Source: Microcystis aeruginosa NIES-2549
Lineage (GTDB): Bacteria > Cyanobacteriota > Cyanobacteriia > Cyanobacteriales > Microcystaceae
DNA: 32,000 nt
Assembly (NCBI RefSeq): GCF_000981785.2
Contig: NZ_CP011304.1
Coordinates: 1,710,001-1,742,000 of the forward strand
Reading direction: 5' to 3'
How positions within the stretch are numbered: position 1 is the first letter of the stretch; every line of letters begins with the position of its first letter. The notes beneath the pieces are model-generated. The model ran no database searches. It had not been told where the DNA came from and saw only the letters and a list, made by a program, of their open reading frames with translations. Below are positions 1,430-31,394 of the stretch, piece after piece. The position numbers and the translations under genes are program-made.

Positions 1430-1884
1430 ATAGAGTCACCAGTTGACCAATACTTTTTTGCTAACTATAGTTTAACAATGCACTCTTTCGAGATTCTCCT
1501 CAAGAGGGAGGACTTACCAGAGTCTAAAACCCTAAAGAAGCTTTAGACAATCAAAGCGCGTGTAACGCCTTTTAGTGTGACTGCTTGGTTAACGCAGGGG
1601 CAACTTATCAAGATAGCGGTTGCTGGCTAACTGGGATTTTCACCTAAACTATCCCAGTTTATCACAGATTTTAACATTGGCTATCTAAATTACTCGTTAA
1701 AATTGCGGGAGAGAAGAGAGAAGGGAGCAGGGAGAAAAAGTTTGAGCATTTGTACTAAAATATCTAATACGCAGTTTAAATAGGGCTTGCTGAAAAAGGC
1801 CTAGGCTGGGGTCCGGCAGAAGGCAGAAGGCAGGAGTTTAAGGCTTTGTTGCCCTCTTTTTTATTGTACCAGTTTATGTACTAA

Positions 1885-3960: not shown

Positions 3961-4707
3961 ATGCAATTCGTCGATTTTCTGGCTCTCATTCATCCTGTCC
4001 TAGCGATAGTGGTCGTTTTTCCTATTATCGGCCTCGTAGTTAACTTTGCTTGGCAAACCCGTCAACGTCGCCTAGAAACCAACGCGGGAAATAAAAGTAA
4101 AATTCCCCCAGTGGTCGGGCCAGAACATCTACGTTTAGGCCGCTGGTTAACGGGTACAGTGGTAGGGGTGAACCTTTTAGCACTAGCTTACTCGGTCGTT
4201 TACGGTTTTAATGGTTTTGTCGATAAACAAAAAGACGGAAAATTAGACCCCTTTCAGGTCATTTTTGTGATTTTGATGTTTTTTGTCACCATTGCCTCTT
4301 TGGCCTGTCTCTACCGCGCTAAACAAGGCCTCTGGCGCGGAATTTTTGCCACCTTGACTGGCATGGGTTTAATTATTATCGGTTCTCAGGATGGGGTCTG
4401 GCGACTCTCGGACCAATGGTACTGGTCCCACTACTATATCGGCATGGCCGCATCATTACTGATGATTTTCTCTCTGGCCATTGTCGAAGATATCTATAAA
4501 GACCGTTCCCATCGTTGGCGCATTGCCCATACAATTCTCAATTGTATCGCTCTGGCTCTCTTTCTGGGACAAGCCATGACCGGTTCCAGGGATTTGCTGG
4601 AAATTCCCCTCAGTTGGCAAAAACCAGCAATTTATCGCTGTGATTTCACCAATAAAACCTGTCCCGAACCGAAATCCTCAACCCCCCTGATCAACCCGAT
4701 AAGTTAA
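3961..4707 (+). CDS. Polytopic membrane protein, DUF4079-like
   Basis: About six predicted TM helices. Histidines lie in or near the helices (IHPVLAI, WSHYYIG, AHTILNC). ATG at 3961 is preferred over the TTG at 3925 used by the ORF track. The family assignment is from memory of DUF4079 proteins. Confidence 0.55.
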   Translation: MQFVDFLALIHPVLAIVVVFPIIGLVVNFAWQTRQRRLETNAGNKSKIPPVVGPEHLRLGRWLTGTVVGVNLLALAYSVVYGFNGFVDKQKDGKLDPFQVIFVILMFFVTIASLACLYRAKQGLWRGIFATLTGMGLIIIGSQDGVWRLSDQWYWSHYYIGMAASLLMIFSLAIVEDIYKDRSHRWRIAHTILNCIALALFLGQAMTGSRDLLEIPLSWQKPAIYRCDFTNKTCPEPKSSTPLINPIS

Positions 4708-9732: not shown

Positions 9733-9852
9733 AGAAAATTTGCAACTAGGACTTTAAGAATTAATATCAACAAATGTCACCTTTGTCACCGGTGTTTCAG
9801 GTTATAATGAGAAATGCTGTCTTTACAGGTTAAATCTTTTTCGAGAAACCCC

Positions 9853-10222: not shown

Positions 10223-10303
10223 AGGCAATTTTTTGGCTCTCCCAGGTTTGGTGGGTAAAATGTATTCTAAGATACATTCCTCCTAGCGAGGGGGTGGAAC
10301 GAA

Positions 10304-10328
10304 CCACAAAGACACAAAGGACACAAAG
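10304..10328. repeat. Short tandem octamer (c/a)cacaaag(g) x3
   Basis: ccacaaag acacaaag gacacaaag read directly, followed by gatcgatcgatc. Confidence 0.6.
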
Positions 10329-10391
10329 ATCGATCGATCATAATGTAAGTTAAACTTATCACACAGAACCTAGAAGAGCCATTTTTTCGAT

Positions 10392-10444: not shown

Positions 10445-12598
10445 CTAGACTACAGTAGCAGCTTTACGGGCAGCGGCGGCCTCATCGGGATGAATACCGA
10501 GACGGGTGAGATTGAGACGACCTTTACTATCGATCTCGCGTACCTTGACTAACACCTCATCCCCCACGGCCACTTCATCCTCCACCTTACCGACGCGTCC
10601 CTCGGCCAATTGGGAAATATGGATCATTCCCTCTTTGCCTGGCAAAACTTCCACAAAAGCGCCGATTTGGATAATGCGAGTCACGCGACCGAGATAAACC
10701 TCACCCTCATTGAGTTTGCGGGTCATATTGTAGATCAGTCGTTTAGCTTTTTCGGCCTGTTCCCCATCGGTGGAGGAAATAGTGACAGTACCATCGTCAT
10801 CGATATCGATTTTCGTGCCGGTCTGTTCAGTAATCCCTTTAACCGTCTTACCACCTGGCCCGATGACTAACCCGATCAGATCCGGATCGATCTTGATCGT
10901 CAATAACCGGGGTGCGTGGGGAGATAATTCCGTGCGGGGTTTTTCTAGGGTCGCTAACATCTTCTCTAGGATATGTTTGCGGGCCGGTAAAGCTTGTTCG
11001 ATCGCCTTGGCCACCACTTCCATGCTTAAACCGGGGATTTTCATATCCATCTGAAGAGCGGTGATGCCAGAATCAGTGCCAGCCACCTTAAAGTCCATAT
11101 CTCCCAGAAAATCCTCGATACCTTGGATATCGGTCAAAATCCGTACTTCTTCCCCTTCTTTAATTAAACCCATGGCCGCACCGCTAACGGGTTTTTTCAG
11201 GGGAACACCGGCATCCATCAGCGCCAGGGTAGAACCACACACGGAACCCATGGAGGTGGAACCATTAGAAGAGAGGACTTCCGACACCACCCGCAGCACA
11301 TAGGGAAATTCCTCCTGGGGGGGGAGGACAGGTACGATCGCCCTTTCCGCTAAAGCACCGTGACCGATTTCTCGACGGCCGGGAGAACGCATCGGACGGG
11401 TTTCACCGACGGAAAAGGGTGGGAAATTGTAGTGATGAAGATAGCGTTTTTCGTCTTCGGGATGGAGATCGTCGCCCAAATCCTGAGCATCACCGGGGGT
11501 GCCAAGAGTGGCGATCGAAAGCACTTGGGTTAAACCGCGATTAAACAAACCGCTACCGTGAACCCGACGGGGTAAAACTCCTACCCGGCAAGAAATCGGG
11601 CGTACTTCGTCCAGTTTGCGACCATCAACCCGCACCCCATCCTCAATAATTTGGGCGCGCATCAGTTTTTTGGTCAGATCCTTAAAGAGATTACCGATTA
11701 ACTTCGGCTCTTCCAGCGTTGGAGCTTTTAAGGGATCTTCATCGGGGAGAGCGGTTATAGTTTCCTTGAGCCGATTTTCGATCGCATCTAATTTCTCATC
11801 CCGTTCGGTTTTGCTGAGGGTAAACTGAGAGAGAATCTGTTTAATTTCCTCTTTAGCTTGTTCTCTCAGGAAATTCTGCACGGTTTCGTTTACTGCCGGT
11901 GCTTCTCGGGTGACGAGGGGAATACCCAACTGATCGATCAATTCCCGTTGAGCGGTGATCAGGTCGCGCACTGCTTCATAACCAAAATCGATCGCCTCAA
12001 TAATATCCCGTTCCGGTAACTGATTGGCTCCCGCTTCGATCATCACCACCCCTTCGGGACTACCGGCCACCACTAGATCCAATTCTCCGTTATGGATTTC
12101 CTTGTAGGTGGGATTGATGATAAATTCATCTCCCAACAAACCGACGCGCACCGCTGCCATCGGTCCTTGGAAGGGAATCCCCGCCAACAGAACCGCCACG
12201 GAGGCTCCGGTAACGGCCAAAACATCCGGGGGGACCTCCTCATCCATCGAGAGGGTCGTAGCGACCACCTGAATATCATCCCGCATCCAATTGGGGAATA
12301 GGGGCCGCAGGGGGCGATCGATCAAACGACCGGTCAGAATTGCTTTTTCCGGGGGACGACCTTCACGACGCAAAAATCCTCCCGGGATGCGCCCGGCGGC
12401 GTATAATCTTTCTTCATAGTCAACGGTTAAGGGCAGGAAATCTACTCCTTCTCTGGCTTTGGCTGTGGTTGCTGTCACTAAAACCGCCGTTTCTCCCGAT
12501 TGGATCAGAACACTCCCGCCAGCTTGGGGGGCTAAAAGCCCTATTTTTAGTCGAATATCCCTGCCATCAAAGGATATTGACTTGTCAAACTCTTCCAT
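10445..12598 (-). CDS. pnp: Polyribonucleotide nucleotidyltransferase (PNPase)
   Basis: 717 aa. Two RNase PH-like cores, a KH domain ([16 protein letters not shown]) and a C-terminal S1 domain ([33 protein letters not shown]). Confidence 0.97.
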
Positions 12599-12684
12599 GT
12601 AAAGCTATATTCCTTTCTTTCACTTTTCTCTGTGCTGTGGCAATCCTAGCATTTTTTGTACCCCTTTCCAGCAGGTTTAGTATT

Positions 12685-12765
12685 CAGTGATCAGTTATCA
12701 GTGATCAGTTATCAGTGATCAGTTATCAGTGATCAGTTATCAGTGATCAGTTATCGGTTATCAGC
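12685..12765. repeat. Tandem 14-mer cagtgatcagttat x5 plus a partial copy (two alternating heptamers CAGTGAT/CAGTTAT)
   Basis: Five perfect consecutive copies counted from 12685 to 12754, then the degenerate cggttatcagc. Confidence 0.95.
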
Positions 12766-12794
12766 TTTTTTCTCCCTGCTTCCATCTCCGATCT

Positions 12795-12900
12795 CCCCAC
12801 ACCCCACACCCCACACCCCACACCCCACACCCCACACCCCACACCCCACTACCCCACACCCCACACCCCACACCCCACACCCCACACCCCACACCCCAAT
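12795..12900. repeat. STRR-like heptamer microsatellite (CCCCACA)n, 15 C4 tracts
   Basis: Seven perfect CCCCACA, one 8-nt variant CCCCACTA (12844-12851), six perfect copies, then a terminal CCCCAAT. The complement is (TGTGGGG)n. Confidence 0.95.
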
Positions 12901-13217
12901 TCCTGCTTTTAAACAGGTTCTAACATTACTTGCTCAAACCGGCCAAAAAATGATAGCTTCAGATATAGGAATAATCTGGTTAAGAAAAAAAATGTCTTCC
13001 CTTGCCGCTTGCTGGCCTAAAAATATTTCTAAGTATTAGCAAAACTGACTGACTCTCAGCAGTTGGGCGGGATTTTTCCTAGCTCGAAGAACCCCAAACC
13101 AAGAAAATTAAGACAATTAAAAGGATTGCGTCTCTATTATCTGTCAGACGCTTCTAATCCAGTGAATTTGCGGGTTATCTTCAAATTAACCCCGTTTAAC
13201 CCTATTTATTATCGATC

Positions 13218-18778: not shown

Positions 18779-18808
18779 ATTTTCTATCCGAATGCTTCGC
18801 CCCTACCC
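18734..18808. mobile_element. MITE-like palindromic repeat family 1, copy 1
   Basis: Termini gtacgggcgaagcatt ... aatgcttcgcccctac are inverted. Homologous copies at 23476, 27896 and 29169. Confidence 0.8.
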
Positions 18809-19100: not shown

Positions 19101-21653
19101 TTAAACCACGACAAAATTAACTAATTTGCCCGGGACAACAATCACTTTTTTGATTTCCTTGCCCTCTAAATAACGTTGGGCGATTTCTGATTCCAGGGCG
19201 AGGGTTTCTAGGGTGCTTTTATCGGCACTAGCGGGAACTTGTATCGTGCCTCTGGTTTTTCCCAAAATTTGGATGACAAGGGTAATCTCGTCCACAATCA
19301 GGGCAGTAGGATCAACTTTTGGCCAGGGTTGCAGGTGAATTGATTGGCTATGGCCTAAAGCTTGCCACAATTCTTCGCTAAGATGGGGAGCAAAGAGGGA
19401 AAGTAAGATTAATAGGGTTTCGATTCCTTCCCGATAAATGGGGGATGCAAAACACTTATTATCCCCTAAAGCGTTACTGAGTTTCATCAATTCGGAAATA
19501 GCGGTATTAAATTGATAATCTCCTTCTAAATCCTCGGAGATTTCTTTAATAGCGGTGTGAATTGCCCGTCTTAAATCCTTGTCAGTTTTCGAGAAAGTTT
19601 CTATTTTTTTGACTTGCTTGGGTTTATTTTCAATATATTCGCTGACTAAACGCCACACCCGATTAAGAAAGCGAAATTGTCCTTCTACCCCCGCATCATC
19701 CCACTGTAAATCTTTTTCTGGGGGTGCAGTAAAAAGTATAAACATTCGAGCAGTATCGGCCCCATATTTTTCCAAGACTTTCAGAGGATCAACGCCGTTA
19801 TATTTCGACTTAGACATTTTTTCAAAGAAGAAAGATAGAACTTCTCCCGTGTCTTTATCGCAATATTTATCCTCTTTATAGATAACATTTTCTGCGGGGA
19901 CATATTTGCCAGTTTCGGGATTTTTGTAGGTTAATCCCTGTACCATTCCCTGGGTTAATAGACGGTTAAAAGGTTCATCGACATTAACTAAACCTCGGTC
20001 TCTTAAAACTTTGGTAAAGAAACGAGAATAGAGTAAATGTAGGATAGCGTGTTCGATTCCTCCGACGTATTGATCCACGGGCATCCAATCATTAACCTTC
20101 TCGAATTGAAAGGGTATATCTTCATTTTTAGCATCGGTATAACGGAGGAAATACCAACTAGAATCGATGAAAGTATCCATGGTGTCCGTTTCCCGTTTTG
20201 CGGGAGTGCCACAGCGAGGACAATCCACATTTACCCAGTCTTCTAATTTGGCTAAAGGAGAAGCACCTCGACCGCTAAATTCGACATTTTCTGGTAAAGT
20301 AACGGGTAAATTATCGATAGGTACTGGCACGGTTCCACAGTTAGGACAGTGGATAACTGGAATCGGACAACCCCAATATCTTTGACGGGAAATTAACCAA
20401 TCCCGGAGACGATATTGTATTCTAGCTTTGCCGTAACCTTGGGCAGTGGCATAATCAATAATAGCGGTTTTTCCTGCTGTAGAATGCAGCCCATTAAATT
20501 GAGCGGAATTAATCATAATTCCCGCTTCTGTGTAAGCATCTTTTAACTCAATTTCGCCACTTTCTGGAGTAATAACTATCTTAATTGGCAGGTTATTTTC
20601 GTGAGCAAATTTAAAATCGCGACTGTCGTGAGCCGGGACTCCCATCACTGCACCAGTACCGTATTCGTAGAGGACATAATCAGCAATTAAAATCGGAATT
20701 TCTTCACCAGTAAAAGGATTAATTGCCAGTCCTCCGGTTTTAATACCGCGTTTGGGTTTATCTTCGGCAGTTCTTTCTAATTCGCTTTCGCTGGCTATCT
20801 CTTGAATAAAAGTTTCTACGGCCGATTTTTGTTCGGGAGTGGTAACTTGTAAAGTTAAGGGATGTTCGGGAGCAAGTACCACATAAGTCACTCCATAAAC
20901 CGTATCGGGACGAGTGGTAAAAACGGCAATTTTTTCTGTGGAATTAACAAGAGGAAATTCTAAATAAGCACCTACCGATTTACCAATCCAGTTGGCCTGC
21001 ATGGTTTTAACCCGTTCCGGCCAACCGGTAAGTTTATCTAAATCAGTGAGTAATTGTTCGGCATAATCGGTGATTTTTAGGAACCATTGCCGGAGTAATT
21101 TTCTTTCTACTTTAGCACCCGATCGCCAAGATTTTCCTTCACTATCTACCTGTTCATTGGCCAACACAGTTTGATCGATAGGATCCCAATTCACTGCCGC
21201 TTCTTTTTGGTAGGCTAATCCCGATTCAAAAAACTGTAAAAATAGCCGTTGGGTCCAACGATAATATTCTGGGGAACAGGTGGCAACTTCTCTTTCCCAA
21301 TCGATAGATAATCCTAACTGTTGTAATTGCCGTTTCATCTGGGCAATATTTTGATCAGTCCATTTTGCCGGAGGAACTCCCCTTTCAATAGCGGCATTTT
21401 CTGCGGGTAATCCGAAAGCATCCCACCCCATGGGATGCAGCACGCGATAACCCTGCATTCTTTTCAGACGGGCAATCACATCGGTAATAGTATAGTTGCG
21501 AACGTGACCCATGTGCAGGTTGCCCGATGGATAGGGGAACATGGAGAGGGCGTAAAATTTCGGTTTATCGGCGTTTTCTGGGGTTTTGTCCAATCCCATT
21601 TGCTGCCAAATCTTCTGCCATTTCTGTTCGATTTCTGCGGGGTTGTACTGCAC
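19101..21653 (-). CDS. leuS: Leucine--tRNA ligase
   Basis: 850 aa. HIGH-type motif ([10 protein letters not shown]), KMSKS present, CP1 editing domain length. Confidence 0.97.
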
Positions 21654-21817: not shown

Positions 21818-23404
21818 CTATCCATTAGTCAGATCTTTCTTAACAAAAAGAGAAGAAACTTAAAAAAAGGGGAAACGATTGATAGGTATAGTTTTGAAAG
21901 AAGGAATTAAGGCCGAGGTGAGCAAAAAAATGGAGAAATGGGCAGCCCAAGAATTACAGTATGCAGACCTAGGGGACACGAGAAGAAAGAAAAGGTTAAT
22001 CAGTATCGTAGAAAACTTGGCCAGTCAATTTAATACAAGTGTTCTATAAGCTTCGGAAAATCTAGCGGCAGCGAGTGCCACCTACGACTTTTGGAATTCA
22101 CCCTATTTTCACCCCTCATATCTAATTGCCGCTCAAGCCAAAAGTACAGTAGAAAGAATCAAAGAACATCCAATAGTTTTGGCAGTTCAAGACACAACAA
22201 GTTTAGACTTTACGACGCAAAAAGCCAAAAAGGGAATGGGTTATCTAGACTGTAAAAAATCCTTTGGTCTCAAAGTTCATACCACATTAGGACTGTCACC
22301 GCAAGGAATACCTTTAGGACTGATTAATCAATATGTCTGGGCAAGAGAAGAAAAGAATTTAGGGATTGCCAAGCAGCGAAAAAAAAGAGAAACCCAAGAA
22401 AAAGAAAGTCAAAGATAGTTAAATTCTTTGTCAGAAACACAATAACAAATACCCGAAGAAATTCAAGTAGTAACAATCGGAGATTGTGAGGCAGACATAT
22501 TTGATTTATTTGCCCAGTCAAGAAATCCTAACTCTCATTTATTAATCCGAGGAACTCATAAACGAAAAGTTAACTATCTCGAAGACAAGGAAAAGTCAGG
22601 GCATCCAGAGACTAAATATTTACATCAATCCATCAGAGAAATAAAAGCCTGTGGTACCCTAGATGTGCAAGTAAAACGCAATCCTAATCACGAGGCTAGA
22701 CTAGCTAAACTAACAGTTAGATTTGCCAGTTTTGAAATACAAGTACCTAAGCATCACTCGAAAGCGAACCCTCGTCAACCGGTCAAATTACAGGGAATTT
22801 TAGCTGAAGAAGAAAATCCTCATCCCGGAGTTAATCCTATCAGTTGACTCCTCTTAACTAGCCTAGACATTAGTAGCTTTGAATCGGCGATAACCTGTGT
22901 GCGCTGGTATAGTTATCGCTGGTTGATAGAACGCTATCATTTTGTTTTAAAAAGTGGTTGTGGATTAGAAAAACTGCAATTAGAAACGGGTCGGAGAATT
23001 GAGATGGCTTTAGCTACCTATTCAATTGTAGCTTGGAGATTACTCTGGTTAACCTATCAAGCACGCTTACACGGAGAGGAGAGTTGTGAAAGTTTTTTGG
23101 AAGAACATGAATGGCAATCTTTGTGTGCCACTATTCATAAAAAGAGTCCGCCACCTGACAAGCCGCCCTCCTTTCGAGAAGCGGTCAGAATGATTGCTTC
23201 TCTTGGGGGGTTTTTAGGTAGAAAAGGCGACGGTGAACCAGGTGTTAAAACTATTTGGTTGGGACTGCGAAGGTTACATGATATCAGCGAGACTTGGAAA
23301 CTATCTCATCAAATTAGTTCCCCCATAGAACCCCCTTGAGCCATCTGGCACACTTTTCTCTTTTTGTCAAATTTTATGTTAAGAAAGATGTGACTAATGG
23401 ATAG
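21818..23404 (+). mobile_element. IS4-family (IS50/Tn5-like) insertion sequence, 1587 bp, decayed
   Basis: Terminal inverted repeats ctatccattagtcaGatctttcttaaca (21818-21845) and rc of 23377-23404, ctatccattagtcaCatctttcttaaca (27/28 match). The internal transposase frame is broken. I could see no target-site duplication. Confidence 0.85.
21930..23339 (+). pseudogene. Tn5-like DDE transposase, disrupted by stops and frameshifts
   Basis: Pieces read MEKWAAQELQYADLGDTRRKKRLISIVENLA..(TAA ~22047)..LAVQDTTSLDF..QEKESQR(stop 22416)..IGDCEADIF..(stop 22845)..YRWLIERYHFVLKSGCGLE..ASLGGFLGRKGDGEPGVKTIWLGL. These match the Tn5 Tnp landmarks (DTTS, CDREADI, YxxRWxIEExHKxxK, ARLGGF). There are at least three disruptions. 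Confidence 0.85.
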
Positions 23405-23475: not shown

Positions 23476-23566
23476 GTAGGGGCGAAGCATTTGGGCATAA
23501 CCTATCGCTGAAACCGTAGATTTCCTATCCGAATGCTTCGCCCCTACCCCAAATTTTTCTCTAGCA
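23476..23566. mobile_element. MITE family 1, copy 2, plus the aatttttctctagcaa linker
   Basis: gtaggggcgaagcatttgggcataacctatcgctgaaaccgtagatttcctatccgaatgcttcgcccctacccc followed by aaatttttctctagcaa. The same MITE-plus-linker unit occurs at 27896-27988. Confidence 0.8.
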
Positions 23567-23669
23567 ACGCACCAAATAAATTAATGATAGGTGTGGTGCG
23601 TTACGACGGATTGTTAGATTTAAGTTTAAGCAGAGATTATCGCCGTCTAACGCACCCTACATTTTACTA
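23566..23669. mobile_element. MITE-like repeat family 2, copy A (left arm missing)
   Basis: 104 bp, aacgcaccaaataaattaatgat..cgccgtctaacgcaccctacattttacta, matches 27630-27733 with 3 mismatches by my count. Confidence 0.8.
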
Positions 23670-23703: not shown

Positions 23704-26700
23704 TTAAGGAAGTCCCAGACAATAGAACGCCCCCCAGTAACGATAATCCTGAAAAGGCACTGCATCGGGAGCAAATTCGTCAAGCCACTTGATCAATTCG
23801 CCGATTTTCTGATAATTAGCCCCAGCAGTATTGACGTTGGGATCGTTAGTTTGGCGCATTTGTCGCCAAGTCTGATAAGCCTGCTGATAATCGACTGTCA
23901 AACTGTCCCGCCAGTCTTTTTGGCAAGTCTCCCGCAGCGCTTGACGAGCCTGATGTAGAGCCGTTAAACGTTCCTCTCCGGCCCGCCTGGCGCGATGGTA
24001 CTCCCGGGAAAACAGCGCCGTAGCTCGATCAGTCACCGCCCAATGACTACTAATCACAGCACGAGCGCCCCCCAACAGAAAGCCTGTACCTAAGCTGAGG
24101 GGTTCGTCCAGTAATTCCGGTCGCAGGTTTCCCTCTTCATCTCGGAAACCGGCAAAACTGAGACCGGTTTCACAACAGGAGAGAAACACTTCCGACAATT
24201 CGGGAAAACGCCACAGGGGACTAAGTAAATCCCGGAGGGTGACTTTTTGCTCCCCGTCTAGGACGAGGTGGGAGTTGAGGGGATCATCGGGGCGGCTGGT
24301 GGCGTGGTGGCTGGAGAGCAACGCCTGCACTTGTTTCAGCAATTGCAGATAAGAGTCGGGGGTGACAGTGCGCCCCTGTAGCCGCCGTTGGCGAGGCACA
24401 TTCCAGGTTTGGGCGACCCACTCACACTCTAGGGGAGTATAGGGCAAATCCTCTGTGGTGTTTTCCACAATCCCCAGGGTGTCGGGAGTGGGTTGCGATC
24501 GCTCTTGGCACAGTCCGAGAATTTTCGTACTGGGGACAAACTGAAGGCGAAAGCGATCGCCCAGTAGTTGACCTTGGGCGGTGGGTAGAAGGTCGAAGGG
24601 AATTTGGTGCAGGAACAGGTGGGGAATCAGAATTAACTCAGTGATGCCCTGGAGGTGCTGTTGGATGAGGGTGTCGAATTGCAGGCGGGTTGCCAGTTCT
24701 TGCAGACGAGTGGCCATAGCTTGGTGCCACTCATCCCGACGCTGCTGGCGGGATTGGGGGGTCTTTGCTTGATTAATCGCAATGTAGGGGTTAACCCAGT
24801 TGTCGATCAGCCAGTTTTGCAGGTCGTTGGCGGACTCCGGGGGATTGGGAATAGTGTGGCAGTTGACCCCTTCCCCGCCATCCCGGGAGGGGCGACGCAG
24901 GACAAAGATGTGGGTATGGGTGGCGGTGGTGTAGAAGCTGAGGAGGGCAGTCTGGGGGGATGGAAGCAGCGCCGTTAGCTCATCGAGTCGGGGTTGGGGT
25001 TGGGGTTGCTGAAGTTGGGCGGTGATGGCATCAAAGCGGTAGAGAGCGTCCCAGGCTTGACGTTCGGCGGCTTCGGCGGCCTGGAGTTGTTCCGTGGCAA
25101 AGCTGGCGCGGGTGTTACCGATGGGGTAGAGTTGGGGTTTCTGGGTGAATCCGGGCTGGTCGAGGGGGTTTTGACGGAGTTGGGATTGGATCTGACGGCT
25201 ATCCTTAACCTGCTGATACCAGGCTTGGATCTCTGGGGGAACGCGCCCATCGGCGTAGAGGTCGCCCACAGCGATCAGGTCGGCGAGGCGTTTGGAGCGG
25301 GAACGTTCGACGGTTCGCAACGCCAGGGAGAGATCGCCTTGGTTAACGGCGGCTTGGATTAGGTTTTCATAAACGCCGATAGACTCGCGGACAATCTCTT
25401 GGCGAAGGACTTCACTGGTTGCCCAGGCGCGGCTTTGTTCAACGGCTTCCACGGCGGCGCTGTAGCCTTCGATGGCGATGTTCCACCAACCCTGCTGGAA
25501 ACCGAGATTGCCTAAGCTGCGCCCAGTTCTCAGGGTGTCAGCCGGTAAGAGAGCGGGGTTGAGAAAGGAAAGTGCTTCTCGATAATTGGCGATCGCCCGT
25601 TCTAGGTTGGCTACCGGCTCTTTCCCCAGTTCGGCTTGGGTGCGGTAGGCATTGCCCAGATTAGTGAGGGTTCCGGCTAAATCCCTTTCTAATCCGGGTT
25701 GGCGGCGGATGGTGGTGGCTTCGGTGAGGGCAGCGATCGCCCGTTCTAGGTTGGCTACCGGCTCTTGACCCAGTTGGGCTTGGGTGTAGTAGGCTACGCC
25801 CAGATTAGTGAGGGTTCCGGCTAAATCCCTTTCTAATCCGGGTTGGCGGAAGATGGTGGTGGCTTCGGTATAGGCGGCGATCGCCCGTTCTAGGTTGGCC
25901 ACTGGCTCTTTCCCTAGTTGGGCTTGGACGCAGTAGGCATTGCCCAGATTAGCGAGGGTTTGGGCTAAATCCCTTTCTAATCCCATTTCACGGCGGATGG
26001 TGGCGGCTTCCTTGAGGGCGGCCATCGCCCGTTCTAGGTTGACCACCGGCTCTTTCCCCAGTTCGGCTTGGGTGACGTAGGCATTGCCCAGATTATTGAG
26101 GGTTTCGGCTAAATCCCTTTCTAATCCGGGTTGGCGGCGGATGGTGGCGGCTTCCTTGAGGGCGGCCATCGCCCGTTCTAGGTTGACCACCGGCTCTTTC
26201 CCCAGTTCGGCTTGGGTGACGTAGGCATTGCCCAGATTATGGAGAGTTTGGGCTAAATCCCTTTCTAATCCCGGTTGGCGGCGGATAGTGGTGGCTTCGG
26301 TATAGGCGGCGATCGCCCGTGCTAGGTTAGCCACTGGATCTTTCCCCAGTTCGGCTTGAGTGCTGTAGGCATTGCCCAAATTATTGAGGGTTCGGGCTAA
26401 ATCCCTTTCTAATCCCAGTTGGCGGCGGATGGTGGCGGCTTCGGTGTGGGCGGCGATCGCCCGTTCTAGGTTGGCTACCGGCTCTTTCCCTAGTTGGGCT
26501 TGGGTGCGGTAGGCTATGCCCAGATTAGTGAGGGTTTGGGCTAAATCCCTTTCTAATCCCAGTTGGCGGCGGATGGTGGTGGCTTCCGTGTAGGTGGCGA
26601 TTGCCCGTTCTAGGTTAGCCACCGGCTCTTGCCCCAGTTGGGCTTGGACGCCGTAGGCATTGCCCAGATTATTGAGGGTTTGGGCTAAATCCCTTTCTAA

Positions 26701-27579
26701 TCCCGGTTGGCGGCTGATGGTGGTGGCTTCGGTGAAGGCGGCGATTGCCTGTTCTAGGTTGGCCACCGGCTCTTGACCCAGTTGGGCTTGGGTGCCGTAG
26801 GCTATGCCCAGATTATTGAGGGTTGTGGCTAAATCCCTTTCTAATCCCGGTTGGCGGCGGATGGTGGTGGCTTCGTTGTAGGCGGCGATCGCCCGTTCTA
26901 GGTTGGCCACTGGCTCTTGACCCAGATCGGCTTGGGTGCAGTAGGCTATGCCCAGATTATTGAGGGTTTGGGCTAAATCCCTTTCTAATCCCGGTTGGCG
27001 GTAAGTTGTGGTGGCTTCGTTGTAGGCGGCGATTGCCCGTTCTAGGTTGGCCACGCAAAATTCGTATCCATAGACGGCAATGGCTAGGTTAATGCGTGGA
27101 TTACCTTTAGGAAATTCACGAAAAGCATCAGCAAGGTAATAGAGTATTGCCGCTAGTTGGTAAGTTTCCTCTGGACTGGCTTGTTCCTTGGTATTATTTC
27201 CCCAAGCACGGAGGAGGTTAACTAAGTTTTCATCTAAGAGATGGAGGTTATTGTCGAGCAGGGGATAAATTACTTGGCGGTTTCCGTCACTTTCCTCGAC
27301 AGTTTGCAGTAGGGTTTGTAAAAAACTGCCGTAGGGGTCTTGGTTGTCTCTGGGCGGTTCTAAAAATTGCTCTAACTGTTGCGCCATATTCAGCAACCAT
27401 CTCCCTTCATTGCTGTCTCCTTGCTGTTCTAAGAAGCCTGCATACTGCTTCATCACAGCGACTAAGCCTGCATCAACTAATTCCGCGTTAGCCTCTAATA
27501 GCGCTGGTTCCTGACCATTTTCGCACTGGAGGAGCGCTTGGATTAGGGCTAAGTAAGCTTCTATTCTTGCTTCGTTCAT
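23704..27579 (-). CDS. TPR-repeat protein with C-terminal CHAT (caspase-like His/Cys protease) domain
   Basis: 1291 aa. Ten 48-aa TPR-like units (NLERAIAAYxEATTIRRQPGLERDLAQTLNNLGxAYxTQAxLGxEPVA). The C-terminal region matches CHAT landmarks: LLSSHHATS (His codons 24304-24309), VFLSCCETG (Cys codons 24172-24177), GARAVISSHWAVTDRATALF. Confidence 0.9.
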   Translation of the reverse strand: MNEARIEAYLALIQALLQCENGQEPALLEANAELVDAGLVAVMKQYAGFLEQQGDSNEGRWLLNMAQQLEQFLEPPRDNQDPYGSFLQTLLQTVEESDGNRQVIYPLLDNNLHLLDENLVNLLRAWGNNTKEQASPEETYQLAAILYYLADAFREFPKGNPRINLAIAVYGYEFCVANLERAIAAYNEATTTYRQPGLERDLAQTLNNLGIAYCTQADLGQEPVANLERAIAAYNEATTIRRQPGLERDLATTLNNLGIAYGTQAQLGQEPVANLEQAIAAFTEATTISRQPGLERDLAQTLNNLGNAYGVQAQLGQEPVANLERAIATYTEATTIRRQLGLERDLAQTLTNLGIAYRTQAQLGKEPVANLERAIAAHTEAATIRRQLGLERDLARTLNNLGNAYSTQAELGKDPVANLARAIAAYTEATTIRRQPGLERDLAQTLHNLGNAYVTQAELGKEPVVNLERAMAALKEAATIRRQPGLERDLAETLNNLGNAYVTQAELGKEPVVNLERAMAALKEAATIRREMGLERDLAQTLANLGNAYCVQAQLGKEPVANLERAIAAYTEATTIFRQPGLERDLAGTLTNLGVAYYTQAQLGQEPVANLERAIAALTEATTIRRQPGLERDLAGTLTNLGNAYRTQAELGKEPVANLERAIANYREALSFLNPALLPADTLRTGRSLGNLGFQQGWWNIAIEGYSAAVEAVEQSRAWATSEVLRQEIVRESIGVYENLIQAAVNQGDLSLALRTVERSRSKRLADLIAVGDLYADGRVPPEIQAWYQQVKDSRQIQSQLRQNPLDQPGFTQKPQLYPIGNTRASFATEQLQAAEAAERQAWDALYRFDAITAQLQQPQPQPRLDELTALLPSPQTALLSFYTTATHTHIFVLRRPSRDGGEGVNCHTIPNPPESANDLQNWLIDNWVNPYIAINQAKTPQSRQQRRDEWHQAMATRLQELATRLQFDTLIQQHLQGITELILIPHLFLHQIPFDLLPTAQGQLLGDRFRLQFVPSTKILGLCQERSQPTPDTLGIVENTTEDLPYTPLECEWVAQTWNVPRQRRLQGRTVTPDSYLQLLKQVQALLSSHHATSRPDDPLNSHLVLDGEQKVTLRDLLSPLWRFPELSEVFLSCCETGLSFAGFRDEEGNLRPELLDEPLSLGTGFLLGGARAVISSHWAVTDRATALFSREYHRARRAGEERLTALHQARQALRETCQKDWRDSLTVDYQQAYQTWRQMRQTNDPNVNTAGANYQKIGELIKWLDEFAPDAVPFQDYRYWGAFYCLGLP
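25609..27048. repeat. Intragenic tandem array, 10 x 144 bp (TPR units)
   Basis: Period confirmed from coordinates: cggcggatgg at 25991 and at 26135. A 106-bp stretch, 25991-26096, recurs exactly at 26135-26240. Confidence 0.9.
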
Positions 27580-27605
27580 GATTGGTTTTAGGTTTTAGTA
27601 GTTTT

Positions 27606-27733
27606 TAGTAGGGTGCGTTAGCGATAGCGTAACGCACCAAATAAATTAATGATAGATGTGGTGCGTTACGACGGATTGTTAGATTTAAGTTTAAGCAGAA
27701 ATTGTCGCCGTCTAACGCACCCTACATTTTACT
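27606..27733. mobile_element. MITE-like repeat family 2, copy B (full length, ~128 bp)
   Basis: tagtagggtgcgttagcgatagcgtaacgcacc..gtggtgcgttacgacgg..cgccgtctaacgcaccctac. Two hairpins are built on the arms GGTGCGTTA/TAACGCACC, and the outer termini tagggtgcgtta/taacgcacccta are inverted. Confidence 0.8.
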
Positions 27734-27806
27734 ATTTGGGGATGGGGAGTGAGTGCGATCATGGATTTTAAGCTATAATCAAAGATGTTGATTTATCCCA
27801 TGAAGT
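27734..27806. repeat. 73-bp direct repeat R3, copy a
   Basis: atttggggatggggagtgagtgcgatcatggattttaagctataatcaaagatgttgatttatcccatgaagt. A near-identical copy lies at 27994-28065. Confidence 0.85.
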
Positions 27807-27809
27807 TTT

Positions 27810-27890
27810 TAGTAGGGTGCGCCCTTCGATAGCGTAACGCACCAAACAAATTAATGATAGATGTGGTGCGTTACGACGGATTGTTAGATG
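27810..27890. mobile_element. MITE family 2, copy C (left part only, variant left hairpin)
   Basis: tagtagggtgcgcccttcgatagcgtaacgcaccaaacaaattaatgatagatgtggtgcgttacgacggattgttagatg, then interrupted by family 1. Confidence 0.75.
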
Positions 27891-27895
27891 ATTGA

Positions 27896-27988
27896 GTAGG
27901 GGCGAAGCATTCGGACAATAACCTATTACTGAAACCCTAGATTTCCTATCCGAATGCTTCGCCCGTACCCCGAATTTTTCTCTAGCAA
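27896..27988. mobile_element. MITE family 1, copy 3, plus linker
   Basis: gtaggggcgaagcattcggacaataacctattactgaaaccctagatttcctatccgaatgcttcgcccgtacccc followed by gaatttttctctagcaa. Confidence 0.8.
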
Positions 27989-27993
27989 ACTCA

Positions 27994-28065
27994 ATTGGGG
28001 ATGGGGGGTGAGTGCGATCATGGATTTTAAGCTATAATCAAAGATGTTGATTTATCCCATGAAGT
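27994..28065. repeat. Direct repeat R3, copy b, immediately upstream of vapB; contains TATAAT
   Basis: attggggatggggggtgagtgcgatcatggattttaagctataatcaaagatgttgatttatcccatgaagt. TATAAT at 28033-28038, 32 nt before the ATG at 28070. Confidence 0.85.
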
Positions 28066-28069
28066 AACA

Positions 28070-28336
28070 ATGTTATCGATTAATCTAGATCGAGAAACCG
28101 AGAACTATCTAGCAGACATCATTTCCGAAGAGAATATTAGCTCAGAAGAACTTCTGAAAAAACTCATTTACGAACATTGGCAAAGCTTAAAACCGCGTAA
28201 AACTTTATTACAACGCCGGGGAGGTCATCCTCAGCATCTTTTAGAAAATGCTCCACCTGATTTGTCATTGCGAGAAAACCGCAAAAAAGTAGTAGCAGAA
28301 TATATACAAAACCATCATCAGCAAGATCATTCATGA
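28070..28336 (+). CDS. vapB: Ribbon-helix-helix (CopG/VapB-type) antitoxin
   Basis: 88 aa. The N-terminal MLSINLDRETENYLADIISEENISSEELLKKLIYEHW fits a beta-strand plus two-helix RHH pattern. There is a 4-nt ATGA overlap with the downstream PIN gene. Confidence 0.7.
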   Translation: MLSINLDRETENYLADIISEENISSEELLKKLIYEHWQSLKPRKTLLQRRGGHPQHLLENAPPDLSLRENRKKVVAEYIQNHHQQDHS

Positions 28337-28755
28337 CAAATTATCCCCCCAAAATTATTACAGATAGCAGTATTTTATTCGCCTATTACAGTTCCCAAGA
28401 TAATTATCATCGGGCTGTCGTCAACTTTTTTGAACAATGTTCCAGCGACTTGATTACAACTGTTGCTTGTATAACAGAAGTAATGTATCTTTTAAGCCAT
28501 AATTATCGAACACAAAATGAATTTTTAAGTGATTTATCCCACCAGCTTTATCAATGTATTCCCCTTTTACCACAGGATTTTGCCAGAATTATACAACTGA
28601 ATGAACAATACGCTGACCTACCGGGAGATTTTGCAGATCTATCTTTAATAACTATTTCTGAAAGACTTAATATTTCTGCAATTATTACCTTAGATAGTGA
28701 CTTTGATATTTATCGCCGTTATCGAAAAGAACCTTTTGAACGAATCTATTTATAA
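28333..28755 (+). CDS. vapC: PIN-domain toxin (VapC-like ribonuclease)
   Basis: 140 aa. Acidic PIN residues are in the expected order (IITDSSIL, ITEVMYL, FADLSLI, ITLDSDF). Translationally coupled to the antitoxin. Confidence 0.8.
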   Translation: MTNYPPKIITDSSILFAYYSSQDNYHRAVVNFFEQCSSDLITTVACITEVMYLLSHNYRTQNEFLSDLSHQLYQCIPLLPQDFARIIQLNEQYADLPGDFADLSLITISERLNISAIITLDSDFDIYRRYRKEPFERIYL

Positions 28756-28781
28756 CAATAAAATTTCAGGGCTATTTTATT

Positions 28782-29021
28782 CTAAAACGTCATGTCATTA
28801 AGGGGAAGCAACCCTTCATCTATATCAGGAAAATTGTCTGTAATGTCTGGCAAAGTAGTCAGCAAAGAAAGTAGAGAACCAGAAGAAATCGGCTCAATGA
28901 TTAAGCGATGACCTTCTTTGCGTAACAAAACCTCTGTGCTTGATAAGGCAAGTTCAGGAGGAATATTTAAGACTTGCTCTTGTCCACTTGTTAGTAAAGA
29001 AACCTGACGTAAGTTTTGCAT
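28782..29021 (-). CDS. AbrB/SpoVT-fold antitoxin (VapB/VagC-like), orphan
   Basis: 79 aa. QVSLLTSGQEQVLNIPPELALSSTEVLLRKEGHRLIIEPI resembles the SpoVT-AbrB swapped-hairpin antitoxin pattern (..SQAVRLPKE..V.I.r.G..liieP). No toxin ORF lies downstream on its strand; only 26 nt separate it from the convergent vapC stop. Confidence 0.65.
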   Translation of the reverse strand: MQNLRQVSLLTSGQEQVLNIPPELALSSTEVLLRKEGHRLIIEPISSGSLLSLLTTLPDITDNFPDIDEGLLPLNDMTF

Positions 29022-29082
29022 CTGTTGACCTCTTTTTTAATGATCACCTTACTATTTTATAACAGGGAACAGGGAACAGTAG

Positions 29083-29260
29083 TAGTAGGGTGCGCCCTTC
29101 GATAGCGTAACGCACCAAATAAATTAATGATAGGTGTGGTGCGTTACGACGGATTGTTAGATGATTGAGTAGGGGCGAAGCATTCGGACAATAACCTATT
29201 GCTGAAACCCTAGATTTCCTATCCGAATGCTTCGCCCGTACCCCCAACGCACCCTACATT
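29083..29260. mobile_element. Nested repeat: MITE family 2 (copy D) carrying MITE family 1 (copy 4, 29169-29245)
   Basis: The family 2 left part runs to gattgttagatg, followed by attga, then the family 1 copy, then the family 2 right terminus aacgcaccctacatt. The junction gattgttagatgattgagtagggg is the same as in copy C. Confidence 0.8.
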
Positions 29261-29275
29261 CTGATATTATTATTT

Positions 29276-30217
29276 TTAAATACATTTTCCCAATTCATCA
29301 AGCAAATCCATCGCCACATCCAGCCAGTCCACCGCACCCTCTGAAGACGGCTCAGGCGTTGCTTCCCTTACCCCTTCTGGACGCGAGACTAAGGGTTTAA
29401 AATTCTCATGATTCTCGTTGGCCTTCTCTTCTAAAAACTCCTTTAATAGCGTCGGACGTTCATAGTCCTGCCGATAGTCCCAGACCCAGTTTAACACCGT
29501 GATTACCTCCGCTCGCTGTTCCGCCGACCAGCCTTGTTTATCGATATACTGCGCCATGATTTGCTGACAGTTTTCCCACCGACGGTAAGCCTCCCACAGC
29601 GCCGATATAGGTTTCCTCATCGCCAAGGACACCGCGCCGCCTTCTGGGAAATCCTGACGCAGGTCCGAACTCAACAGAACCCCAGTTAACCAAGCTCCCC
29701 CTTCCCCTAACTCGATTAAAATATAGGCTAGAGTTGCCGGATTTAGGTCAATTTCGACACTAATTTGGCTTAAATCCAACAGTTCTTCACCAGAGTCTTG
29801 AGGAATCAATATAGCTTCCAGTTTACCTAGCTTGGGTAGTACCACATCTGCTGTTGGATTGAGCAGTTGTAGCACCGCTTGAGCGTGGTCAGCCGCCGCA
29901 GCATCTACCTCTATCCCATGCCCTTCTAAATAATATGTCAGCACCGCCGCCGCTAAGGTGTTCTGACGAATCAGTTCCCCAAAGCTGGGATTAGGGTGAG
30001 CCAGGGCCAGTTTATTGGCTCGCTTTTGAGCCGCTGCGTCCCAGGGAACCCAAACAGAAGAGGATGCTTGTCCGGTGCTGTCCTCCTCCTCCGTTGTGTC
30101 TGCGATCGCTAACCACGCCTGAAACTCAGGATCGTTTTCCAGTTCGTCATCGTCAATCCAGTCCTCTAGGGGGTTGAGAGGTTCATTGACATCTGAGGTT
30201 GAGGTAGAGATAGACAT
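29276..30217 (-). CDS. DUF1822-like acidic protein
   Basis: 313 aa. ..IRQNTLAAAVLTYYLEGHGIEVD..ADVVLPKLGKLEAILIPQD..LAYILIELGEGGAWLTGVLL.. follows the layout I recall for cyanobacterial DUF1822 (..NTLAVxAVxxYLxxxGIxxD..ADLxLPxLGKLECRPV..YVxVQxD..LLGF). The N-terminus is very acidic (DWIDDDELENDPEF). Family call is from memory. Confidence 0.55.
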   Translation of the reverse strand: MSISTSTSDVNEPLNPLEDWIDDDELENDPEFQAWLAIADTTEEEDSTGQASSSVWVPWDAAAQKRANKLALAHPNPSFGELIRQNTLAAAVLTYYLEGHGIEVDAAAADHAQAVLQLLNPTADVVLPKLGKLEAILIPQDSGEELLDLSQISVEIDLNPATLAYILIELGEGGAWLTGVLLSSDLRQDFPEGGAVSLAMRKPISALWEAYRRWENCQQIMAQYIDKQGWSAEQRAEVITVLNWVWDYRQDYERPTLLKEFLEEKANENHENFKPLVSRPEGVREATPEPSSEGAVDWLDVAMDLLDELGKCI

Positions 30218-30247
30218 AATTTTCTAGGAGGGAACGGGGGACATTAG

Positions 30248-30276
30248 AAAAGGAGTTTATTCGAGAAACTCCTTTT
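30248..30276 (-). terminator. Intercistronic hairpin (attenuator or terminator-like) between the sigma-like gene and the DUF1822 gene
   Basis: Perfect 11-bp stem aaaaggagttt / aaactcctttt with a 7-nt loop. On the minus strand the 3' arm ends in UUUU. Confidence 0.4.
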
Positions 30277-30287
30277 CTGGGTTAACT

Positions 30288-31280
30288 TCAGTCTTCCGAG
30301 AGAAGATCTTCTGCGGAAAAATGTTCTTGGAGCCAAGGACAACACTTGTCATTATAGAACCGGCGAATTGTGGTGTCGTCGCACCCCCACTGTTGTGCCA
30401 TTTCCTCCCAAGGGACGGATTCTGGGGGTAAGAGATTTAAGATCACCAGTTGGGCGTTAATGTGCCTTAATGCTTTGCTTCGGGGCTGAATCTGTTGGAG
30501 TTCTCTAGCACAGGGACCCTCCACTGCTTCTCTGATCTGCTCCCACCACGCTTGAGACGGCCTAGACCCAATGTTATCTAAAGGATCATTCGCCCTCAAG
30601 CGTTGCTCTTGGGCTTTTCTGATAGCTACTCCCTCCAGGGCGCGATAGATGCGTATTTCTAGCCACCCTTTAACGGTACACTGTCCACTCTGTTGTCGGT
30701 AATGGGGATTAAAGACAGAATCCTTACCTCTGGGGGTTGGTTGGCCTTTTAAGCTCAGGCCAAGATAGCGCCACACCTGGAATTGCGCTTGATTAATGTC
30801 CTCTTGCTTAAGTTCCTGTTTATCTTTGGCACTAATCTTCCCTTTAATCCAGGGAGCGGAGATCCAGTTTTTGATTTTAGGATCTAACTTCCTGCCAATG
30901 TCATCCTTAAGAGTATGCCAGAGGCGATCGAGTTGCTGCCAAGTTGGGTTATCCTTTGCCCGATAGTAAGGAGATTCAGGTATGACGCACTCATTGCCAC
31001 TGGGGTGACGGTTATCGAGGACAATCCGCACAAGAGCGCATAAGGGGAGGAGAATCTCTAGCGGTAGGCTGGTTAGCGCCCTTGGGGAGTTGAGAAATTG
31101 AATAATGTTATCTATAGATTCATAAAAGCGCTTTTCCGCTTGCAACCACTGCTCACTCCCTGAGGGGAGAAAGTTAGAGTCATTTTCTTCAAGGGGTTTG
31201 CCGGTTTCCGGCACAACATTACGGAGTCGTAGCCGCCAGTAGGTTGCCACCTTGACTAGGGGAATAAGCTCGTCGTTCAC
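30288..31280 (-). CDS. Divergent sigma-70/ECF-like protein with ~200-aa N-terminal extension
   Basis: 330 aa. The C-terminal VPWEEMAQQWGCDDTTIRRFYNDKCCPWLQE fits the region 4.2 HTH pattern (l.eEiA..lG.s..TV..r...a...L). TVKGWLEIRIYRALEGVAIRK resembles the region 2.4 W-L-x-x-I-x-x-x pattern. The N-terminal half has no family I recognise. Confidence 0.5.
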   Translation of the reverse strand: MNDELIPLVKVATYWRLRLRNVVPETGKPLEENDSNFLPSGSEQWLQAEKRFYESIDNIIQFLNSPRALTSLPLEILLPLCALVRIVLDNRHPSGNECVIPESPYYRAKDNPTWQQLDRLWHTLKDDIGRKLDPKIKNWISAPWIKGKISAKDKQELKQEDINQAQFQVWRYLGLSLKGQPTPRGKDSVFNPHYRQQSGQCTVKGWLEIRIYRALEGVAIRKAQEQRLRANDPLDNIGSRPSQAWWEQIREAVEGPCARELQQIQPRSKALRHINAQLVILNLLPPESVPWEEMAQQWGCDDTTIRRFYNDKCCPWLQEHFSAEDLLSED

Positions 31281-31394
31281 GGCATTGTCTTTTCCTTAAA
31301 ATTATTTTTTCCACAACTGCAAAAAAAGTCTAGTGGGTCTCATTAGTTAAGTAAGCGGACGAAAAGCCGCAATAACTTAACAAGGAGTTGACTG

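Follow-up and report, generated by a model that had tools for sequence, protein, structure and literature searches.

A probable variant, with a TPR-CHAT protease, of the cyanobacterial ECF-like sigma, DUF1822, and caspase systems in Microcystis aeruginosa

Results

Three genes in series in M. aeruginosa NIES-2549

The subject of this study is a set of three genes in Microcystis aeruginosa NIES-2549 that encode a sigma-like protein, a member of the DUF1822 family, and a protease in which tetratricopeptide repeats (TPRs) precede a caspase-like CHAT domain. They lie within a 32,000-nucleotide stretch of contig NZ_CP011304.1 (positions 1,710,001 to 1,742,000), the whole of which was analyzed and is referred to here as the window. 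An earlier reading of the bare DNA sequence (the original prediction) had placed the three genes in series on the minus strand and had proposed that the protease acts on one of its two neighbors to release a transcriptional response. Our open reading frame (ORF) calls agree with this arrangement (Table 1). The sigma-like and DUF1822 genes share a strand and are separated by a 70-nt gap, and a further 1696 bp (27580–29275) lie between the DUF1822 and TPR-CHAT genes. The rest of the window is housekeeping in character, with leuS, pnp, prfA, tal, and ribosomal protein genes. Neither ORFs resembling cas genes nor spaced direct repeats of the kind that form a CRISPR array were found in the 32-kb window or in the related loci that we inspected.

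Table 1. Features of the sigma-like/DUF1822/TPR-CHAT locus, in window coordinates (MITE, miniature inverted-repeat transposable element; TA, toxin–antitoxin; HTH, helix-turn-helix; AF2, AlphaFold2)
Feature	Position	Strand	Basis or remark
TPR-CHAT protease gene	23704–27579	(-)	1291 residues; Pfam CHAT and TPR_12
CHAT (caspase-like) domain, residues 960–1289	23713–24702	(-)	PF12770, E=2.9e-38
MITE-like and duplicated repeats between TA block and TPR-CHAT gene	27597–28065		Repeat families D1–D4, hairpins I2 and I4
Pair of 88-residue antitoxin and 140-residue PIN toxin, opposite to the three genes	28070–28755	(+)	PF01850, E=6.9e-10
VapB-like antitoxin, 79 residues, orphan here	28782–29021	(-)	NCBIfam VapB, E=7e-6 and 1.6e-4, both under cut-off
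Second copy of 165-nt nested MITE-like repeat, just downstream of DUF1822 gene	29083–29247		98% identical to 27810–27974
DUF1822-family gene	29276–30217	(-)	313 residues; ORF call, PF08852
Sigma-like gene	30288–31280	(-)	330 residues, GTG start; ORF call
Predicted sigma2-like (residues ~155–230) and sigma4-like HTH (residues ~243–325) regions	30306–30818	(-)	hhalign-aligned columns
N-terminal extension of sigma-like protein, residues 1–~154, helical, no known family	30819–31280	(-)	Alignment; low-confidence AF2 model
AACTGCAAAA, upstream half of promoter-like motif	31315–31324	(+)	Faces divergent methyltransferase gene; conserved in other Microcystis loci

The TPR-CHAT protease

The product of the longest of the three genes consists of an N-terminal helical domain that is not built of TPRs, a 10-copy array of 48-residue TPRs, a linker, and the C-terminal CHAT domain. 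In the DNA, these repeats take the form of a 144-nt unit repeated in tandem 10.2 times (25588–27054; 88% matches by Tandem Repeats Finder), and their translation matches TPR_12. The original prediction had singled out an HH and a CC pair as the site of an apparently intact His/Cys dyad, and this reading is upheld by an alignment of 13 CHAT domains. The pairs correspond to residues 1091–1092 (24304–24309) and 1135–1136 (24172–24177), and the second member of each, H1092 (24304–24306) and C1136 (24172–24174), aligns with the catalytic His or Cys and is kept in the orthologs. As judged from this alignment, the predicted catalytic dyad His1092/Cys1136 is intact.

By our own ORF calls, the TPR-CHAT protein ranges from ~1056 to 1291 residues among Microcystis strains, and an automated call in one of them (locus L003 in our numbering) gives 909 residues. 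This variation in length falls mainly within the repeat-bearing part of the gene. The sharing of TPR repeats and of the N-terminal domain makes orthologs hard to define.

The sigma-like protein

The 330-residue protein has no match in Pfam, NCBIfam, or PADLOC or, by profile search, among the sequences of the PDB. An exhaustive profile search recovers a few long relatives of 349–391 residues together with ~37 proteins of ~200–220 residues, which align to query positions ~150/200–332 with E values from 5e-10 to 8e-4. Sigma70_r2 is matched by 8/29 of these short relatives and the TIGR02937 sigma70-ECF model by 10/29 (best E=2.9e-8), and some carry the NCBI name sigma-70 family sigma factor. Alignment of the 330-residue family with the short sigma family by hhalign gives a probability of 99.7% (E=7e-27) over 163 columns, which include one sigma2-like block and one that resembles the sigma4 HTH. 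Profile matches to sigma factors in the PDB are weak (SigK, E=0.28; RpoE, E=0.62). When the short family was compared with Escherichia coli RpoE, using an approximate RpoE sequence, hhalign aligned the sigma4.2 HTH alone (E=0.047, probability 1%), an outcome that agrees with a sigma relationship and does not count as evidence for it.

Taken by this transitive route, the C-terminal half of the 330-residue protein is most probably a divergent ECF (extracytoplasmic function)-like sigma core of ~170 residues. The original prediction had located sigma regions in the C-terminal third, behind an unrecognized domain of ~200 residues; the sigma relationship stands, whereas its extent is redrawn by the hhalign columns and the alignment, with the sigma part taking up the C-terminal half (~residues 155–325) and the unrecognized part shortened to ~155 residues. 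The sigma4-like region is strongly conserved across genera. The N-terminal extension is missing from the ~220-residue canonical sigma relatives and is kept in subfamily members of other genera. An AF2 model of the 330-residue protein built on a 7-sequence alignment has a poor predicted local distance difference test score (pLDDT 60.7) and renders the extension as helical with low confidence, and a Foldseek search with the model gave noise.

In one relative of 480 residues (L007, 182–1624), the sigma4-like segment is duplicated internally, with INAKQVILNRLP...FYEDHCFPWL present twice, and a weak Pfam Death-domain match (E=0.05) lies near the C terminus, at residues 433–464. A Death domain is also matched, at 3e-6, by one of the short sigma relatives. 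A metagenome scan with the sigma-like alignment returned Microcystis-like contigs and nothing else.

The DUF1822 protein

DUF1822 is a family nearly confined to cyanobacteria. The 313-residue protein matches PF08852 with E=9.6e-9 and 35.2 bits against a cut-off of 25, and the match covers profile positions 5–119 of 370. With a pI of 4.17, and with 16 acidic and 0 basic residues among the first 54, the protein fits the original description of a very acidic DUF1822-like protein. An AF2 model based on a 78-sequence alignment (pLDDT 81; predicted template modeling score 0.73) consists of a disordered acidic tail, an alpha+beta core at residues 55–200 (29618–30055), and a helical C-terminal half. 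Aligned with canonical DUF1822 proteins, the window protein keeps the N-terminal core alone; the beta-rich C-terminal domain is gone, and an acidic N-terminal tail of 54 residues has been gained. Canonical members share an invariant block, A-D-L-V-L-P-N-x-G-K-L-E-C-R, on a predicted beta-hairpin, in which the Cys-Arg pair is replaced by Ala and a hydrophobic residue in the window subfamily. PD-(D/E)xK nucleases bear their motif at the corresponding hairpin position.

No significant match was obtained when the DUF1822 model was searched against the PDB with Foldseek, and the hits that came repeatedly to the top were the restriction endonucleases PvuII and HincII (E 0.3–0.9, probability ≤0.35). 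The model thus weakly resembles a restriction-endonuclease-like fold, which we treat as a lead and not as a result. The DUF1822 profile found no match at E≤10 among PDB sequences. The original prediction had cast this protein as anti-sigma-like, in the manner of Csx30, and neither sequence nor Foldseek searches returned a match in favor of that role. No Csx30 chain was present among the 46 Foldseek matches in the PDB, in a copy of the database for which the presence of Csx30 was not confirmed. This result argues against detectable homology between the two proteins and leaves analogous function untouched. The description of DUF1822 as a TPR protein by Kaur et al. was considered and rejected, as the confident AF2 model is alpha+beta. 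DUF1822 was not found in a scan of viral contigs, and a plasmid search by tblastn with the window protein found nothing.

Conservation of the three genes across cyanobacteria

Comparable loci were gathered by a scan of GTDB genomes, by look-ups of the encoding contigs, and from plasmid records, and were annotated with our own hidden Markov models. A sigma-family gene lies directly upstream of DUF1822 in every non-Microcystis locus examined. Loci that we term canonical combine a short sigma gene with a full-length DUF1822 gene. In eight of them, the two genes overlap by 4 nt, which suggests that their translation is coupled in the way of sigma/anti-sigma pairs. Directly downstream, 8/10 evaluable canonical loci encode a protein that has a CHAT domain at its N-terminal end. 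This domain spans approximately residues 96–345 and is followed by a variable domain (Pkinase, nSTAND1-WD40, CHASE2, ANF-receptor, or PBP-like). We also considered whether the N termini of TPR-CHAT and of the canonical sigma proteins have an adaptor helix in common, and rejected this idea (hhalign probability 0.14%).

Two Nostoc plasmids have a CHASE2 protein at the position downstream of DUF1822. On a Pseudanabaena plasmid (AP017563; L050, 4313–8532), the sigma-70-family/DUF1822 pair is followed by an M48 metallopeptidase, and a CHAT protein lies ~4 kb further on. The coupling of the sigma/DUF1822 pair to proteases may therefore extend beyond a single protease class.

The window belongs to a narrow subfamily defined by an extended sigma protein, a short acidic DUF1822 protein, and a TPR-CHAT ortholog. 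TPR-CHAT orthologs adjoin the sigma-like/DUF1822 pair in five lineages, namely Microcystis, Prochlorothrix hollandica, a metagenome-assembled genome (MAG) of Prochlorotrichaceae, and two metagenomic lineages, so the co-occurrence of the three genes for which the original prediction had called does extend to other cyanobacteria. In Microcystis, the CHAT gene lies downstream in every locus of sufficient length, behind a gap whose contents vary by strain (VapBC forms or HicAB); the suggested comparison with related strains places the protease gene at this locus. In the Prochlorotrichaceae MAG (L021), the order is sigma-like gene, DUF1822, a 213-residue AbiEii-like nucleotidyltransferase, and an 885-residue TPR-CHAT protein, which matches that of the window with E=5e-53 over the CHAT domains and E=1.6e-146 over the full-length proteins. 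The TPR-CHAT gene follows DUF1822 directly in L036 (P. hollandica) and L037, where the encoded protein shares the non-TPR N-terminal domain of the window protein (MNEARIEAYLALIQALLQC... versus MDEARMQAYLELIQELLSC...). In P. hollandica PCC 9006 (L038, 12424–18394), TPR-CHAT appears split into a 451-residue N-terminal ORF and a 708-residue CHAT ORF, which are separated by two PDDEXK_2 genes on the opposite strand, with two more beyond the CHAT ORF. A further locus, L009, has a CHAT C terminus upstream of the sigma-like/DUF1822 pair. The recurrence of the three genes in five lineages, with differing inserts and orders, supports a functional linkage, and we consider it very probable that they form a genuine conserved module.

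The opposite possibility is that the linkage is incidental and that a stand-alone TPR-CHAT gene merely shares a variable island with a sigma/DUF1822 pair. The 1.7-kb gap full of mobile DNA would fit such a history, as would the degraded insertion sequence (IS) on the far side of the CHAT gene. Conserved linkage across the five lineages, in spite of their different orders and inserts, makes this very unlikely in our view; the non-repeat N-terminal domain is orthologous as well, and canonical DUF1822 pairs show the same CHAT linkage in the proportion given above.

A conserved operon runs divergently from the sigma-like gene in the non-Microcystis lineages (L021, 484–4371(-); L038, 5887–9625(-); L037, 2–1813(-); L036, 31–3469(-)). 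Its products are a 173–178-residue protein with a weak YbjN-like match, a trypsin-like serine protease, and proteins of 262–274 and 316–416 residues. The corresponding position in Microcystis is held by a methyltransferase/fatty-acid desaturase/alcohol dehydrogenase cluster.

Secondary insertions between the DUF1822 and protease genes

The separation of the protease gene from the sigma-like/DUF1822 pair in this strain is due to TA and MITE insertions. That the gap is filled with secondary material (MITEs, an orphan antitoxin, an oppositely oriented vapBC pair, and repeats) had been recognized at the outset, and ORF, domain, and repeat analyses concur. The PIN toxin gene (28333–28755) overlaps the upstream 88-residue ORF by 4 nt, in keeping with a type II VapBC pair. 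The MITE-like repeats of the gap comprise a 165-nt unit in two copies, a 63-nt unit in three, and 20-nt hairpin arms, and further copies occur at 23479–23620, just past the 3' end of the CHAT gene, and at 18787. We regard the TA/MITE block as secondary because the two genes adjoin directly in L036 and L037 and because the gap contents differ in other lineages. The same two facts favor the proposal that the three genes were once contiguous.

The locus L001 carries the same 79-residue antitoxin gene followed by a cognate 142-residue PIN gene. Set side by side, window positions 28070–29021 and L001 positions 11204–12152 each contain convergent antitoxin genes (79 and 88 residues; 97–99% identical between strains) that flank a slot of ~420 nt. 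The PIN toxin gene in this slot differs between the strains; the two toxin genes are unrelated (18% identity) and face opposite ways, so that either strain has a complete TA pair plus a single orphan antitoxin.

Just past the 3' end of the TPR-CHAT gene lies a degraded and fragmented IS4/Tn5-family transposase (21879–23339), with Tnp_DNA_bind, DDE, and Dimer_Tnp_Tn5 pieces in different frames. Elsewhere in the window, the pnp gene is preceded by two adjoining heptanucleotide tandem arrays (12665–12914), the first of CAGTGAT/CAGTTAT units and the second of CCCCACA units.

A promoter-like motif in related loci

In four non-Microcystis lineages, the bipartite sequence AACTGCACAA-N16-TGA(T/G)AAG lies with fixed spacing upstream of the sigma-like gene. 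L009 has a weaker version, AACTGCACAT-N16-CGATAGG, before a 78-residue gene that precedes the sigma-like gene. At up to 3 mismatches, AACTGCACAA-N16-TGATAAG has six matches in L021 versus 0.06 expected, at 365–397(-), 1726–1758(-), 4438–4470(-), 4544–4576(+), 7522–7554(+), and 10298–10330(+). These sites precede the sigma-like gene, the TPR-CHAT gene, the divergent operon for the 173-residue, trypsin-like, and 262-residue proteins, a 402-residue gene, and two flanking units. L038 has two matches versus 0.02 expected, at 9758–9790(+) and 20505–20537(+). According to work cited in PMC10028731, ECF sigma factors often autoregulate, which makes AACTGCACAA-N16-TGATAAG the obvious candidate promoter for the sigma-like protein. 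We infer from its placement that the motif may be read by this protein.

Discussion

Relationship to known systems

An association of ECF sigma factors with DUF1822 and EACC2-caspase proteins was described computationally by Kaur, Iyer, Burroughs and Aravind (eLife 2021; PMC8195603), in whose proposal a sensed stimulus activates the caspase and transcription by the coupled ECF sigma comes last. The statement in the original prediction that DUF1822 genes often neighbor sigma and CHAT genes in other cyanobacteria holds in the loci examined here and was already in the literature (PMC8195603). The idea is accordingly less new than had been assumed at first. Our locus shares with the published systems an ECF-like sigma gene directly upstream of DUF1822, a caspase/CHAT gene close by, and a mostly cyanobacterial distribution, and their canonical loci were recovered independently in the present analysis. 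It differs from them in several respects. The known proteins begin with an EACC2-caspase region followed by a variable sensor, whereas the CHAT domain of the window protein is C-terminal, behind a helical domain and TPRs; it therefore departs from the EACC2-caspase architecture in the position of CHAT, a comparison in which EACC2 itself was not scored. The window CHAT domain has no phmmer match to the canonical CHATs at E<1e-3. The sigma protein has its extra N-terminal extension of ~155 residues, and the DUF1822 protein amounts to the N-terminal core, with no Cys-Arg after the invariant Glu, no beta-rich C-terminal domain, and an acidic tail added. On these sequence comparisons, we assign the locus to a variant of the cyanobacterial systems of ECF-like sigma, DUF1822, and caspase in which the protease is of the TPR-CHAT type. 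As the general association was predicted in 2021, the advance lies in the variant and in the leads that it provides, not in a new principle.

A functional parallel established by experiment is offered by type III-E CRISPR systems, in which Csx29, a protease of TPR-CHAT type, cuts the sigma inhibitor Csx30 (PMC10028731). The Craspase system (Cas7-11/Csx29/Csx30/Csx31/CASP-sigma; PMC10028731, PMC9825189) resembles ours in its TPR-then-CHAT protease with a His/Cys dyad and in a protease gene that adjoins genes for an ECF-like sigma and a small partner; cleavage of a sigma inhibitor is the model that we propose here. The window differs from it in having no Cas7-11, CRISPR array, cas genes, or Csx31, and the activating signal cannot be guide-RNA target binding. 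The Csx29 model NF041237 scores 48.3 bits against a cut-off of 300, over the CHAT region only, and the window protease is not a Csx29 equivalog. DUF1822 is in turn unrelated to Csx30 by sequence and predicted fold. In the CalpL-CalpT-CalpS system (bioRxiv 10.1101/2024.05.08.593097; PMC11417357), a protease, a sigma-binding partner, and an ECF-like sigma likewise lead to a transcriptional response. That system differs in its Lon-type protease, its SAVED sensor that binds cyclic tetra-adenylate (cA4), and its dependence on CRISPR, and no homology of its components to the window proteins was detected. The theme of a sigma factor that an N-terminal extension or a partner bound to it keeps inactive until proteolysis releases it recurs in BldN/ECF121, whose N-terminal extension is removed proteolytically (PMC7826278), and in the cleavage of RseA by DegS and RseP (as cited in PMC10028731). 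Both use different proteases, the RseA system is membrane-linked, and neither has a family relationship to the window proteins.

A possible protease-to-sigma switch

By analogy with these systems, we propose that the module may work as a protease-to-sigma switch, a reading to which we assign a probability of about 45%. DUF1822 would be the stoichiometric partner of the sigma-like protein, made together with it and holding it inactive or tethered. A signal read through the N-terminal domain and the TPR array would activate the TPR-CHAT protease, which would then cut DUF1822 by means of its His1092/Cys1136 dyad or else the sigma protein's N-terminal extension. The freed sigma-like factor would direct RNA polymerase to a small local regulon, which in the relatives may be marked by AACTGCACAA-N16-TGATAAG and would include the sigma operon, the protease gene, and the divergent trypsin-like operon. 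The binding of the sigma protein by DUF1822, the identity of the substrate, and the nature of the signal are all parts of the model that we infer. Two observations favor DUF1822 over the sigma extension as the putative substrate. The canonical systems share the former and lack the latter, and in this subfamily the TPR array occurs jointly with the acidic tail of DUF1822 and the extension of the sigma protein, which suggests that these parts interact.

Several points weigh against this proposal. Neither by sequence nor by fold was a likeness of DUF1822 to Csx30, CalpT, or classical anti-sigma domains detected, and the 330-residue protein itself matches no sigma model, gave a poor AF2 model, and yielded nothing informative in Foldseek. 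Even with as many as 3 mismatches allowed, the window has no match to the full bipartite motif, of which the upstream half-site alone survives. The motif copy upstream of a CHAT gene equally fits a protease that is an output of the system and not its input. Within Microcystis, the ratio of nonsynonymous to synonymous substitution rates (dN/dS) of the sigma-like gene is ~0.68, a sign of weaker constraint. Lastly, a common Microcystis allele (L014–L019; for example, L015, 9097–10684) has an unrelated ORF of 256–257 residues with no family match in place of the sigma-like gene. In this sigma-less allele, whose protein clusters have many members, the first ~74 residues of DUF1822 are replaced and the invariant A123-D124 is deleted, and TPR-CHAT is still downstream. 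Since the sigma-like gene can be replaced while DUF1822 and CHAT persist, the protease cannot depend strictly on this sigma factor.

Two of these points lead to competing explanations. In L021, the motif immediately precedes the TPR-CHAT gene, the divergent operon, and other flanking units. This position would be accounted for if the sigma-like/DUF1822 pair sensed its signal by other means and the sigma factor transcribed TPR-CHAT, and in the relatives the trypsin-like operon, as effectors of stress, defense, or cell death; conflict systems commonly use CHAT and caspase domains as effectors (PMC8195603). In L036 and L037, on the other hand, the CHAT gene begins ~115–190 nt past DUF1822 with no clear copy of the motif, and this short spacing makes the protease gene look co-transcribed with its supposed regulator. 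The canonical CHAT proteins, moreover, bear sensor domains (CHASE2, STAND-WD40, periplasmic-binding, or kinase), which places the CHAT protein at the input end. We therefore hold the protease to be unlikely as a pure output, and the two schemes could coexist, with expression of the protease serving as a positive feedback loop for the switch.

The weaker constraint on the sigma-like gene, taken with its frequent replacement and with the TA/MITE insertions, could instead mean that what this strain retains is the remnant of a module in decay, with an ancestral linkage and a sigma arm that in Microcystis no longer works with the protease. Compared with the closest strain, the dN/dS of the sigma-like gene rises to 2.2, a value that is based on few substitutions. 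The frequency of the sigma-less alleles with DUF1822 lacking A123-D124 points the same way, as do the missing full promoter motif and the CHAT genes that are split in L016 and L035 (Microcystis) and in L038. Against decay, all three ORFs are intact in the window allele, and the sigma4-like region is, as described above, highly conserved across genera. DUF1822 and CHAT are under purifying selection within Microcystis, with dN/dS of 0.26 and ~0.3, respectively (0.26–0.33 for both). We accordingly regard decay as improbable.

Returning to the switch, its most far-reaching form would make the module a CRISPR-independent counterpart of Craspase. The TPR-CHAT protease would sense a cellular or phage cue and cleave the acidic DUF1822 protein, a new kind of anti-sigma with a restriction-endonuclease-like fold, and the extended sigma factor so freed would switch on an island-wide regulon (AACTGCACAA-N16-TGATAAG) that includes further proteases. 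We regard this version as doubtful.

To our knowledge, protease-gated sigma switches are experimentally established only with a CRISPR-effector trigger, as in Craspase and CalpL-CalpT-CalpS, or in envelope-stress pathways. If the proposed switch is correct, the same protease–sigma logic would be carried out by a TPR-CHAT protease independently of CRISPR, DUF1822 would gain its first function, and the large expansion of CHAT proteases in cyanobacteria would be tied to transcriptional control. The subfamily offers practical handles in being small and present in Microcystis and the cultured P. hollandica PCC 9006, with a defined dyad, natural sigma-less alleles, and a candidate promoter motif. 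Because Microcystis forms toxic blooms, a strain-variable regulator of stress or defense in this genus would also be of ecological interest.

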